The position numbers and the translations under genes are program-made. 39,321 nt of DNA from Patescibacteria group bacterium (lineage in GTDB: Bacteria > Patescibacteriota > Patescibacteriia > JAHIZJ01): assembly GCA_018814765.1 (NCBI GenBank), contig JAHIZJ010000027.1, positions 1 to 39,321 of the forward strand, in the 5' to 3' direction. Each line of letters opens with the position of its first letter. Positions within the stretch are counted from its first letter, which is position 1. Of the stretch, positions 24,740-27,947 are shown in pieces. The notes under the pieces were generated by a model. The model did not search any database. It worked only from the letters and a program-made list of their open reading frames with translations, and was not told where the DNA came from.

Positions 24740-25321
24740 ATGATCATATCCATATCAGGTAAGCCGGGCTCAGGAAAAAGCTCAGTTGCTAAGGCGATTG
24801 CTAAAGAGTTTGGACTGGAACGATATTACATGGGCAGACTTTGGCGCGAGAAGGCTCGTGAGAAAGGCTTAACATTAGTTGAAGGGCTGATAGAAGGTGA
24901 GACAGACTCCGTTACAGACAAAGAAATAGATGACTATCAGATAAAGCTCGGTCAGACCAAAGATGATTTCGTTATAGAAGGCCGAACCTCATTTCACTTC
25001 ATTCCTCAATCATATAAGATATACCTGGATGTGGAGCCGGAAGAAGGGGCCAAGCGCATCTGGGGCGACCTGCAAAAGAACGCAGATAAAAGAAACGAAG
25101 CTCAGCAATTAAACAGCGTTGACGATGTGATAAAAAGCGTAGCCAGACGTATTAAAAGCAGTCAAATACGTTACCGGAAGTACTACAATATAGATGTATT
25201 TGATCCAAAAAATTATGATTTTTATCTGGACACAACTAAGATAGATAAGCCAGGTGTGATAAAAAAAGTTATTGAACAAATAAAAAAAGATGTGGTCACT
25301 AGAATCAAAGAAAGGAATTGA
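24740..25321 (+). CDS. cmk: Cytidylate kinase, archaeal-type (AAA family)
   Basis: ISGKPGSGKS, VIEGR, RYRKYYNID, YDFYLDT. Confidence 0.85.
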   Translation: MIISISGKPGSGKSSVAKAIAKEFGLERYYMGRLWREKAREKGLTLVEGLIEGETDSVTDKEIDDYQIKLGQTKDDFVIEGRTSFHFIPQSYKIYLDVEPEEGAKRIWGDLQKNADKRNEAQQLNSVDDVIKSVARRIKSSQIRYRKYYNIDVFDPKNYDFYLDTTKIDKPGVIKKVIEQIKKDVVTRIKERN

Positions 25322-26876
25322 TAAACAGGCGGTAATCGCGCTAATTGGGGGGTTTTTTGTTATTGTGATAATTATAGTCCTTACTGTTGTTATTGAAAAA
25401 AATAATCCATTTAATGGTCAGGGGGCATTTGATCGTTTAATACCCAGCCAGTCACAGTTGTATATACACGCTGATATAAGCAGGATACCAAAAGATAGTG
25501 AATCTGTTGCTAACGAGGAGCTGACTAAGTTTGTCCTAAATGGTGAGCAGGAGCTAAAAAGGCTGATGCCCGGAGGGATTAACCTGACTGTTTTTGCATC
25601 TAATCTTAACAATGAATTGGCGTTTTTCAAGTTAACCGAAGGCTATGGCTTATTGGTCAGAGTAAAATCAGAGGAGCAGTTTCGTGAGTTTATGGCTGAT
25701 TCGTTTAAGGATGAAATAAAGAGTGAGGAGTTTGAAAGTACCAAGATAGTTACACAGACCGCAGATAGTTCTATCAACCTTAGTTGGGCTCGGGTGAATA
25801 AAAAAGTTTATATAATTGCCAGCACAACTGATGTAATTAAAGAAGTTATTTCCGTTGATAAGAAAAAGACAGAGTCGATCGAAGCGCGAATCAAAGTATA
25901 TAATCCCGGTGCTCATTTTATCTATGGGATAGCTAACCCAAAACAATTGGTTGGTACATATAATATTCTTGATTCTATCACTGAGATAGGTTCACAAAGT
26001 CTGAATGAATTCACTGAAACATATTTTGACCTGGACACAAAGGATGGAATGCTTTTTGGAACGATCAGTAATTATGCACCGACCTTGCTAGAAAGATTAA
26101 CTGCCGGTGACTTGCCAAACATTTACAGACAGTCAAGCAGGTACATGCCGGATGATTTGAATCTGGCTTGGCTAAATACAAATCCCGGTGAGTTCATTGA
26201 TAATCTGCAGATGTTTCAACTAGCTTTTCCCGACGAACTGAACTTTGACTGGCCAGACTTTGTAAATCAGGCGCTGGGCTTTGATTGGGAAAAAAACATC
26301 TTGCCTCTTCTTGACATTCAGACCGATATATATGTTGCTCCAACGGATCAGCCAGATGATATGAGTAAACCATTTGTTATTTCCTTTATCCCAGACGAGT
26401 TGGAACAATTGACGGAGACACAAAATAATTTAGAAGCAGTCCTAAGACAAGTACTGGGAACTATGTATCCCAGTCGCTTAGAAAAGATATTATCCGACGG
26501 TAGTAGTGTAGTTGAGCTACTGCCAAATCCCCAAGCAGGTGAGACGACACAGTATCAATATGAAGATCAAACGATTGATAATCTTTGGCGAATTGATTTA
26601 CCGAAATCCGAGATGGTCATAGTTTTTGGTCAGCTGGATAAGCGGATAATCTTTTCGAACTCTACAGAGTTGGTTGATTCTATAATCCAGCAATCGGCTA
26701 TAGATACTGAAGCCACACCCAAGTGTCTGGAAGAAATAAAAGGCAGTCGTCTAATCGTTCTGGATAATAAGCAGATTGAGTCACTAAATTCGCTCGGGCA
26801 TAACATTTCACATCTCTATATAGGAGACGGAATCACAGATAATAAGATTTTGTTAAATTATTGTCTGGAATTCTAA
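25290..26876 (+). CDS. Hypothetical membrane-anchored protein (DUF3352-like)
   Basis: 528 aa with N-terminal TM helix; family call tentative. Confidence 0.7.
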   Translation: MWSLESKKGIDKQAVIALIGGFFVIVIIIVLTVVIEKNNPFNGQGAFDRLIPSQSQLYIHADISRIPKDSESVANEELTKFVLNGEQELKRLMPGGINLTVFASNLNNELAFFKLTEGYGLLVRVKSEEQFREFMADSFKDEIKSEEFESTKIVTQTADSSINLSWARVNKKVYIIASTTDVIKEVISVDKKKTESIEARIKVYNPGAHFIYGIANPKQLVGTYNILDSITEIGSQSLNEFTETYFDLDTKDGMLFGTISNYAPTLLERLTAGDLPNIYRQSSRYMPDDLNLAWLNTNPGEFIDNLQMFQLAFPDELNFDWPDFVNQALGFDWEKNILPLLDIQTDIYVAPTDQPDDMSKPFVISFIPDELEQLTETQNNLEAVLRQVLGTMYPSRLEKILSDGSSVVELLPNPQAGETTQYQYEDQTIDNLWRIDLPKSEMVIVFGQLDKRIIFSNSTELVDSIIQQSAIDTEATPKCLEEIKGSRLIVLDNKQIESLNSLGHNISHLYIGDGITDNKILLNYCLEF

Positions 26877-26991
26877 TTATCTTCATGTGGATAAGCCATA
26901 ACCATACTAACAAGCAGTCCACCTTTTTGTATTTGGCTGGATTTCACGTTTCTTGGCTAAGACTATACAAAAAGATGACAAAATACTGCTC

Positions 26992-27020
26992 TTGACAAGA
27001 TGCTTTTTCTTTGCTATACT
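26992..27020 (+). promoter_or_regulatory. Strong sigma70-type promoter
   Basis: TTGACA-N17-TATACT. Confidence 0.75.
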
Positions 27021-27026
27021 CCTAAT

Positions 27027-27432
27027 AGAATCATTGACAACCCAAATACTTCATGCCGGAATGGTGTGAAATACCACTTCCACGTAGCGCGGAATTGGAT
27101 TTTCATACTGTTCGAAATAACTGCCCTTCCGACGGGCTGAAAACCAAAACAAATTCCCCCAAAACAGGGGAAAACAAAAACAAAAAGGTGTTTTTCTGCG
27201 ACTTCGGTTAAAGTGAAATACCGTAAGAACGGTGTGAAGAGCTGCACATTTGATAGTCGGATATAATGTGTGTAAGAGCATTGAACGGAATGCCTTGCGC
27301 TGGCTATACGAATACCTCATTTGAAAAAAGTTAAATTGGGTGCTCGTATAGCCGGACTCGGCTTATTTAATGCTTTGGGCGTAGCTAGCCATTTACTAAT
27401 CGTTTAGGGCTTGAACTACGCCCTTTTCTTTT
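27027..27432 (+). ncRNA. Unidentified ~400-nt structured RNA
   Basis: Lies between promoter and terminator (gggcgtag...ctacgccc plus T run); long-range G-U-containing helices; no credible ORF. Confidence 0.6.
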
Positions 27433-27479
27433 TGTTGTAATTCGTTGTAGAAATTATATACTTGTTGTAGGAGATTATT

Positions 27480-27947
27480 ATGTTAAATCCATTTCGTTAT
27501 CCCGTATTACTTATTTCAGCTTGTGCTGTTTTATTTTTCTCTGATCGGTTGGGTAAGCTTATATCACAACTAAATGTCAACACCAACGTCATAATAAATA
27601 AGTGTTTTGCTTTTGGATATTATCCAAATCAGGGAATAGGCTTTGGGATACAGATGAACAAAACGATCATTATTGTTACGTCGGTAATAATCATTTTAGG
27701 ACTAGCCGGTTGGCTAGTTCATGTATGGAATAAAGAATATGCAATGCAAGCTTGGGGCATCAGCTTTATTGTTGCGGGAGCTACTAATAATTTGTTAGAC
27801 AGAATATTTTTTGGTCATGTGATTGATTATATAAAGTTATTTGATTGGTCACTGTTTAACCTAGCTGATGTAATGATAGTTGTTGGATTGATCATTGTTT
27901 TGTTGGGACTGCATAAGCCTGAAAAGAATGACTTTACAAAAAATTAG
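27480..27947 (+). CDS. lspA: Signal peptidase II
   Basis: NQGIGFG, GATNNLLDRI, VIDYI, FNLAD. Confidence 0.9.
   Translation: MLNPFRYPVLLISACAVLFFSDRLGKLISQLNVNTNVIINKCFAFGYYPNQGIGFGIQMNKTIIIVTSVIIILGLAGWLVHVWNKEYAMQAWGISFIVAGATNNLLDRIFFGHVIDYIKLFDWSLFNLADVMIVVGLIIVLLGLHKPEKNDFTKN

Follow-up and report, generated by a model that had tools for sequence, protein, structure and literature searches.

The 39,321-nt contig JAHIZJ010000027.1 of a Patescibacteria group bacterium (GenBank assembly GCA_018814765.1), which we analysed over its whole length and refer to as the window, carries a stand-alone RNA gene at positions 26992-27433 of the forward strand, within a gap of ~600 bp between the gene for a 528-aa protein and lspA. 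Judged by its sequence and by those of its relatives, the product belongs to a new family of non-coding RNA in Patescibacteria, large and compactly folded. Our best explanation, which we hold with moderate confidence, is that this RNA acts in trans by binding protein and that its transcription is modulated by DnaA, the leading candidate for the protein partner being RNA polymerase, in a role like that of 6S RNA. An earlier reading of the sequence alone (hereafter the sequence-only reading) had described a structured RNA of ~400 nt that belonged to none of transfer-messenger RNA (tmRNA), signal recognition particle (SRP) RNA, T-box leaders and RNase P RNA, and this description holds: at gathering thresholds, the models of Rfam 15 match only two tRNAs in the window, and at E ≤ 10 the RNA region itself gives noise only, the best match reaching 25.6 bits where the threshold is 52. 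Our literature search, with subscription-only papers outside its coverage, found no paper describing this RNA.

The gene has its own signals at both ends, again as the sequence-only reading had proposed. The sigma-70-type promoter (26992-27020; this and all other features are on the forward strand unless stated otherwise) consists of a -35 hexamer TTGACA at 26992-26997, a 17-nt spacer with a terminal TG, and a -10 hexamer TATACT at 27015-27020; it matches the consensus at 11 of 12 positions, and the TG makes for an extended -10 element. This promoter block is kept in seven of seven members of the family to which the window's genome belongs, and the same promoter type, TTGACA...(TG)nTATACT, recurs at many distant loci of the RNA. 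With the start placed by the -10 hexamer and the end by the U-run of the terminator, the predicted transcript spans 27027-27433 (~400 nt). The intrinsic terminator (27377-27433) has an outer stem in which GGGCGUAG (27377-27384) pairs with CUACGCCC (27416-27423), with compensatory changes among the seven family sequences, then an inner stem around an AU-rich loop of ~17 nt, and a U-run at 27424-27433. Distant relatives have a terminator of the same design, with energies of -19 to -26 kcal/mol. Between promoter and terminator there is no credible coding sequence: no open reading frame (ORF) within the RNA region keeps its position or its length across the seven family members compared. The forward strand of the region folds at -139.8 kcal/mol, versus -97.8 ± 5.7 kcal/mol for shuffled sequences (z = -7.4), and the reverse strand is less exceptional (z = -4.6 versus shuffles). 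In the terminator hairpin (27377-27423) and its counterparts in relatives, the inner stem is conserved and the enclosed AU-rich loop measures ~17-19 nt, with the pattern A-UAAU...U-U-GG, which is unusual for a plain terminator; a partner for this loop, sought by eye and against the A-rich tracts only, was not found.

The fold is supported by covariation. RNAalifold, run on the seven full-length family sequences, gave a consensus of 110 pairs, of which 53 show compensatory changes. For the 5' domain, in 28 sequences aligned to a covariance model, 90.3% of cells are paired, versus 66.1% in shuffles and 43-52% in controls with slid partners; 55 of the 61 pairs in this domain show compensatory changes, and none of 500 shuffles reached the observed values. 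Relatives upstream of lspA in Patescibacteria, which the sequence-only reading had named as the place to look for covariation, exist and covary.

From 5' to 3', the RNA begins with hairpin H1 (27050-27070), in which RNAalifold pairs UUCAUGCC (27050-27057) with GGUGUGAA (27063-27070); H1 is well supported in the family and has 88% of cells paired in the count from the model-based alignment, with duplex energies that are weak outside the family. Hairpin H2 (27074-27098) is variable in sequence and has compensatory changes in seven of its seven pairs; one relative has a 33-nt insertion immediately 5' of it. H3 is a 13-bp closing helix around a junction that bears H4, an optional H5, and H6. Its 5' strand, UUUCAUACUGUUC at 27101-27113, includes the almost invariant ACUGUUCG, and its 3' strand, GAACGGUGUGAAG, lies at 27227-27239. 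This helix had been picked out from the single sequence as the pairing of tttcatactgttc with gaacggtgtgaag, and it is confirmed: 11 of 13 pairs, counted as helices 3 and 4, show compensatory changes, and its strands form a duplex of -14.2 kcal/mol when taken from the same genome, versus -7.2 kcal/mol in the control. Within the junction, H4 (27123-27137) pairs GCCC (27123-27126) with GGGC (27134-27137) around a loop at 27127-27133 that contains UCCGAC (27128-27133), and its stem covaries (CCC/GGG versus CCU/AGG). H4 is followed by an A/C-rich single-stranded tract (tract 1, 27138-27153, CUGAAAACCAAAAC...), which forms a conserved alignment block, by the small hairpin H5 (27154-27172), which many families are without, and by the A-rich tract 2, AAACAAAAACAAAAAGG (27172-27188), which continues into H6; the core of tract 2, ACAAAAACAAAA, is kept with minor variation in the displayed alignments from other classes. 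H6 (27187-27222) has a conserved GGU...ACC base and, in the family, a UUCG tip, and after it comes the conserved motif ACC-G/A-N-AAGAAC-GGU at 27220-27233. Outside the junction, H7 (27244-27271) pairs 27244-27250 with 27265-27271, has compensatory changes in eight of eight pairs, and carries the segment GUCGGA (27256-27261) in its loop. The 3' domain is a long irregular hairpin of ~100 nt, H8 (27275-27376), in which GGCUAUACGA (27302-27311) pairs with UCGUAUAGCC (27344-27353), with compensatory changes and strong covariation in the family. Both this part of H8 and H7, the latter as gcacatt/aatgtgt, were among the helices drawn in the sequence-only reading. Single-sequence folds of distant relatives include a comparable long hairpin and suggest the same order of elements. 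The most conserved letters of the RNA are unpaired or stand at helix ends: ACUGUUCG, CUGAAAAC, AAACAAAAACAAAAAGGU and ACCNNAAGAAYGGU.

Other elements proposed from the single sequence did not survive comparison. A helix of agcgcgg (27087-27093) with ttgcgct (27295-27301) is complementary in this genome only; it is missing from the consensus fold, and inspection of the relatives' aligned rows showed no equivalent complementarity. The sequence GTGAAATACC is indeed present in two copies, 27066-27075 and 27213-27222, but these are the 3' helix strands of H1 and H6 rather than T-loop-like loops. A switch between H1 and H3 had also been suggested; the alternative pairing is strong and energetically possible, but only in the family of the window's genome. 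Outside that family, the cross-duplexes reach -5.2 and -4.5 kcal/mol, close to the -4.5 and -3.3 kcal/mol of the between-genome control, in contrast to the H3 duplex with its -14.2 versus -7.2 kcal/mol.

Concerted changes in two loops indicate that hairpin H7 locks onto H4 via a loop-loop kiss of ~6 bp. The H4 loop segment UCCGAC is complementary to the H7 loop segment GUCGGA, and across relatives this loop pair takes the form of 24 different complementary sequence pairs that change in concert between lineages, for example UCCGGC/GCCGGA, UCCUAG/CUAGGA, CCAUGA/UCAUGG, UCCCAC/GUGGGA, ACCAGC/GCUGGU and UCCAAUC/GAUUGGA. For a quantitative test, the hairpin loops were picked out by program and lengthened by 3 nt at either end, an earlier control with wide regions having been uninformative. 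Loops from the same genome are complementary over at least 5 positions in 25 of 30 cases, versus 24.8% for loops paired between genomes, and over at least 6 positions in 16 of 30 cases, versus 9.9%.

By blastn, the 5' 250-280 nt of the RNA are present at 71-83% identity in all six other genomes of the same family, which represent five other genera, while the matches among 54 other families are six only, all fragments of 21-33 nt. Within the family, the RNA is the best-conserved part of its locus, since the flanking proteins are only 27-44% identical. For wider searches we used two covariance models, R1, built on the 5' domain, and R2, a second model from 26 diverse core sequences. R1 found one copy in each of 26 of the 151 genomes sampled from the class; R2 matched 56 of these 151 genomes, exactly once each, with a distribution that is mostly all-or-none within families. 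Ten of 150 genomes sampled across the phylum match R2, and eight of them were judged genuine by their hallmarks. The R2 matches L075 and L078 were judged false by eye, being coding-like sequence without hallmarks, and the R1 matches L045 and L050 are doubtful. Because the large searches applied strict filters to sampled genomes, these prevalences are lower bounds. A strict scan with a DNA pattern returned 12 loci, seven of them genuine, in records that include Patescibacteria group and Candidatus Kuenenbacteria. Two records labelled uncultured Gammaproteobacteria bacterium (L056 and L062) also carry the RNA, with R1 scores of 239.8 and 35.3 bits; these labels look wrong, and the score of L056 equals that of the family member in L003.

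Predicted binding sites for DnaA (DnaA boxes) lie upstream of the RNA gene. A perfect box at 26886-26894 on the reverse strand (TTATCCACA on that strand, TGTGGATAA along the RNA strand), ~100 bp upstream of the -35 hexamer, is the only such box in the window of 39 kb, and the whole genome of 1.38 Mb holds 26 (0.019 per kb). Six of the seven family members have a perfect box at the matching distance (-160 to -162 from the model start). With up to one mismatch allowed, boxes occur between -320 and -40 of the model start at 23 of 29 loci, and the 280-nt upstream segments of the 29 loci hold 41 boxes (~5 per kb), versus 30 in the remaining ~85 kb (~0.35 per kb). Thirty-two of the 41 boxes share one orientation, and loci from other classes likewise have upstream boxes. 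As read off from the loci, there are usually 1 to 4 boxes, roughly 25 to 176 bp from the -35 hexamer. We considered and rejected the idea that the locus is a replication origin: GC skew shows no switch, and dnaA-dnaN is on another contig. The spacer between dnaA and dnaN (contig C79:5826-5990) contains three boxes with one mismatch each and is likely part of oriC; that contig has no perfect box.

The strong terminator, the presence after it of -10-like elements (TATAAT or TATACT in relatives, judged by eye), the single copy per genome and the changing identity of the downstream genes argue for a stable RNA made on its own rather than as a leader, and a rigid junction on which highly conserved A/C-rich single strands are displayed resembles a surface for binding protein. 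We propose that DnaA, and hence replication or growth state, would modulate transcription of the RNA, and that the RNA would act in trans as a scaffold or decoy for a protein partner, to which the junction would present the A/C-rich strands (CUGAAAAC... and AAACAAAAACAAAAAGG) together with ACCNNAAGAAYGGU. RNA polymerase is the leading candidate partner, which would give the RNA a role like that of 6S RNA. A 6S-like role is our leading guess because this RNA and 6S RNA do not overlap in distribution, because the sigma-70 promoter is strong and because a DksA/TraR-type gene comes next in many relatives, DksA-family proteins being known to bind RNA polymerase; the evidence for this guess is thin. 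A more specific version is that the RNA replaces 6S RNA in lineages where no 6S RNA is detected, serving as an RNA polymerase decoy of another, kissing-loop-locked architecture whose synthesis would be set by DnaA. We offer this version tentatively, and consider it unlikely as it stands.

The comparison with 6S RNA yields both likenesses and differences. The 6S model (RF00013) detects 6S RNA in 22 of 151 genomes sampled across the phylum (7 above threshold), in none of 151 genomes of this class, nor in the window's genome, and, at E ≤ 0.1, in none of 36 genomes carrying this RNA. Conversely, R2 has no convincing match in the 22 genomes that bear 6S RNA; weak matches in three of them were rejected as lacking the hallmarks, one of them lying in A-rich sequence. 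Like 6S RNA, this RNA is single-copy, of housekeeping type and driven by a strong sigma-70 promoter, and its H3 domain (~140 nt) shares with 6S RNA a long closing helix, a large unpaired region and a terminal hairpin. However, 6S RNA is a rod of 150-200 nt, with a closing stem, a bubble of two similar strands and a terminal stem, and the H3 domain does not fold in this way: a loop strand of ~75 nt that carries two hairpins faces a strand of 4 nt. The present RNA also adds a junction with a kissing loop, a 3' hairpin and 5' hairpins. A 13-nt identity, CAUACCACAAGAA, connects two relatives with the 6S RNA of Escherichia coli, and an identity of equal or greater length arose in 3 of 200 shuffles. 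We rejected homology of this RNA to 6S RNA, as there is no score in either direction. The canonical 6S genes of Patescibacteria (L079-L082, 58-73 bits) directly follow a Peptidase_M50 gene at four of four loci, two of which are from one genus.

Several observations weigh against a trans-acting, 6S-like RNA under DnaA control. The RNA is about twice as long as 6S RNA, is not rod-like and scores nothing with the 6S model (gathering threshold 46.4 bits), which fails to match the RNA region even at E ≤ 10. With filters off, R2 gave only one noise overlap, of 4.3 bits, on four Patescibacteria 6S genes and E. coli ssrS; the 13-nt identity is not collinear with the architecture of 6S RNA, and the Patescibacteria 6S genes stand at another locus, without upstream DnaA boxes. 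Complementarity between the two RNAs is partial, since 95 of the 151 class genomes show neither, and both RNAs are bound to clades, such that related genomes are non-independent observations. The alignment (A4) behind the pair counts for the 5' domain was fitted to the model, and is thus biased toward the modelled structure. Lastly, lspA or lgt lies downstream at 25 of 35 loci, in several classes, which a cis-acting leader would explain no worse than chance synteny does.

This linkage to lspA is what keeps the leader explanation alive. The RNA would then be a very large riboswitch-like or protein-dependent attenuator, whose terminator gates a dksA-like gene and lspA (or lgt), and with them lipoprotein maturation. 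Of the genes that follow the RNA on the same strand at the 35 loci examined, 24 are or lead to lspA, usually with a DksA/TraR-type gene in between, and one is lgt, loci of other classes with a differing upstream neighbour being among them; in the window, the lspA start codon comes just 48 nt after the terminator, and a complex junction locked by a kissing loop is, as a matter of general knowledge, typical of ligand-binding aptamers. At the remaining 10 loci, however, the downstream gene is unrelated, unidentified or missing (cca, rnhB, a CarboxypepD_reg protein, an IS200-like fragment, dksA-like without lspA, or unidentified, with two loci having no same-strand ORF). The ~100 nt of the unrelated hairpin H8 stand between the conserved domain and the terminator; no antiterminator pairing was noticed by inspection, which was not a systematic search; -10-like elements come after the terminator, and the terminator hairpin is elaborate and conserved, as would be expected where a stable RNA ends. 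We regard a leader as unlikely. A still lower place goes to catalysis, which we consider very unlikely: the size, the multi-helix junction, the kissing loop and the invariant unpaired nucleotides resemble those of large ribozymes, and the RNA is kept in genomes of ~1 Mb, but there is no similarity to the ribozyme families of Rfam 15 and no hint of a substrate, and conservation is highest in low-complexity A-rich strands, of a kind more often associated with protein-binding sites. It is about equally improbable that the RNA is tied to replication itself, either as a decoy or cofactor of DnaA that would use the A-rich single strands, or as a transcript of R-loop or primer type. The conservation and enrichment of upstream DnaA boxes across classes and the display of A-rich single strands on a rigid scaffold would fit such a role, as would the binding of single-stranded nucleic acid by the AAA+ domain of DnaA. 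Nonetheless, the locus is not an origin and has no switch of GC skew, dnaA-dnaN with its three near-consensus boxes is elsewhere, and the boxes at the RNA usually number only 1 to 4, at the distances given above. A search for T-rich targets in the same genome gave only matches with at least two mismatches, as expected for a low-complexity 17-mer, and nothing further was found for a match to the A-rich tract near dnaA.

A very divergent copy of 6S RNA, RNase P RNA, tmRNA or SRP RNA has been largely refuted, and we consider the chance of one slim indeed. In its favour are the 13-nt identity with E. coli 6S RNA and the outline of the H3 domain, with its closing stem, large loop and terminal hairpin; against it, beyond the failure of all Rfam models at E ≤ 10 and the 6S comparison above, genuine RNase P RNA and tmRNA genes are found elsewhere in the genome. 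RNase P RNA (RF00010) gives no model match in the RNA region and 132.9 bits at contig C130:5200-5701. It is similar in length to this RNA, and its conserved P4 strands are GAGGAAAGUCC... and ...ACAGAANCCGGCUUA. The decamer ACUCGGCUUA of this RNA recalls the P4 3' strand, but is not conserved in relatives; the RNase P-like ACTCGGCTTA to which the sequence-only reading had drawn attention belongs to a stretch of H8 that varies and is not conserved, and no 5' P4 strand occurs in the RNA. ARAGORN finds no tmRNA in the window, whereas a genuine tmRNA (RF00023) scores 91.4 bits at contig C83:12252-12641. Its call of a 'permuted tmRNA' at contig C102:10660-11227, which seems to be pieced together from tRNA-like sequence and has no recognisable tag, is most likely false. 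The T-box leader model (RF00230) has no match in the region at E ≤ 10. The SRP RNA models (RF00169 and RF01854) match neither the region nor the genome; neither Pfam nor signature motifs reveal an SRP54 GTPase or an M domain in this genome, which has neither Ffh nor FtsY, and tblastn with E. coli Ffh against it gives a best E of 0.05. Because the genome is also without the SRP-type GTPase and M domain, the RNA is not a stand-in for a missing SRP RNA. In 101 genomes sampled across the phylum, PF00448 gives matches at the level of the P-loop only, and RF00169 matches in 0 of 151. Loss of SRP in these genomes is probably already known, as one paper reports that SRP subunits are absent in many bacteria of the candidate phyla radiation (PMC8080830). 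Least probable of all, to the point that we give it almost no credence, is the reading that it encodes a small protein, whether as a plain mRNA or as a dual-function RNA. Forward-strand ORFs of 46 and 52 aa do lie inside the region, but across the seven family members neither these nor any other ORF holds its position or length, substitutions track base-pairing rather than codons, and the indels are of 1, 2, 4, 5 and 7 nt.

Among known regulatory RNAs, CrcZ (RF01675) and CsrB/RsmZ are likewise several hundred nt long, with their own promoter and terminator and with conserved A-rich single strands among hairpins. The present RNA differs from them by its rigid tertiary fold and by having only two A-rich tracts, with no array of repeats, and we rejected a sponge of the CrcZ/Csr type; CrcZ scores 14 bits against a gathering threshold of 95, and its weak alignments, at noise level, involve the terminator tail and A-rich tract 2. 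A scan of the genome with regular expressions for the signature motifs of Hfq and CsrA found neither, which is a weak test. The OLE, ROOL, GOLLD and raiA motif RNAs are similar in another sense, being large, intricate, supported by covariation, restricted in lineage and encoded by independent genes with conserved neighbours. None of them has an Rfam 15 match here, and the present RNA differs in phylum, in architecture and in its upstream DnaA boxes.

New classes of large, intricately folded bacterial RNA are rare, and known ones have led to ribozymes, ribonucleoprotein machines and global regulators. The function of this RNA is presumably important, because it is kept across many families and several classes in genomes of ~1 Mb that have shed much, including the SRP pathway, and in a phylum that accounts for a large part of bacterial diversity. 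The covarying kissing loop leads to a testable three-dimensional model, the conserved DnaA boxes provide a handle on how chromosome replication may be linked to a structured RNA, and the non-overlap with 6S RNA leads to a specific hypothesis. If the RNA does replace 6S RNA and DnaA sets its synthesis, the state of replication would feed directly into global transcription.

Downstream, lspA (signal peptidase II; 27480-27947; PF01252, E = 9.5e-25) has a candidate promoter of its own at 27435-27462, directly 3' of the terminator, with TTGTAA, a 16-nt spacer and TATACT; this is a weak match to the consensus, at 9 of 12 positions. The window's genome is without a DksA/TraR zinc-finger gene (PF01258), which most relatives carry between the RNA and lspA, and a DksA-like protein as obligate partner of the RNA was rejected for this reason. 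The upstream neighbour (25290-26876) encodes the 528-aa protein, which has no Pfam match and has an N-terminal hydrophobic run resembling a membrane helix. Homologues of it adjoin the RNA in six of six other family members. It is nonetheless unlikely to be the partner of the RNA, given the membrane-helix-like run and its absence from many loci. Indeed, upstream neighbours vary across loci, and include cmk, a DUF3352-like protein, PNPase, RNase J, a helicase and trmD; the DUF3352 match is in the upstream neighbours of two relatives (L030 and L071).

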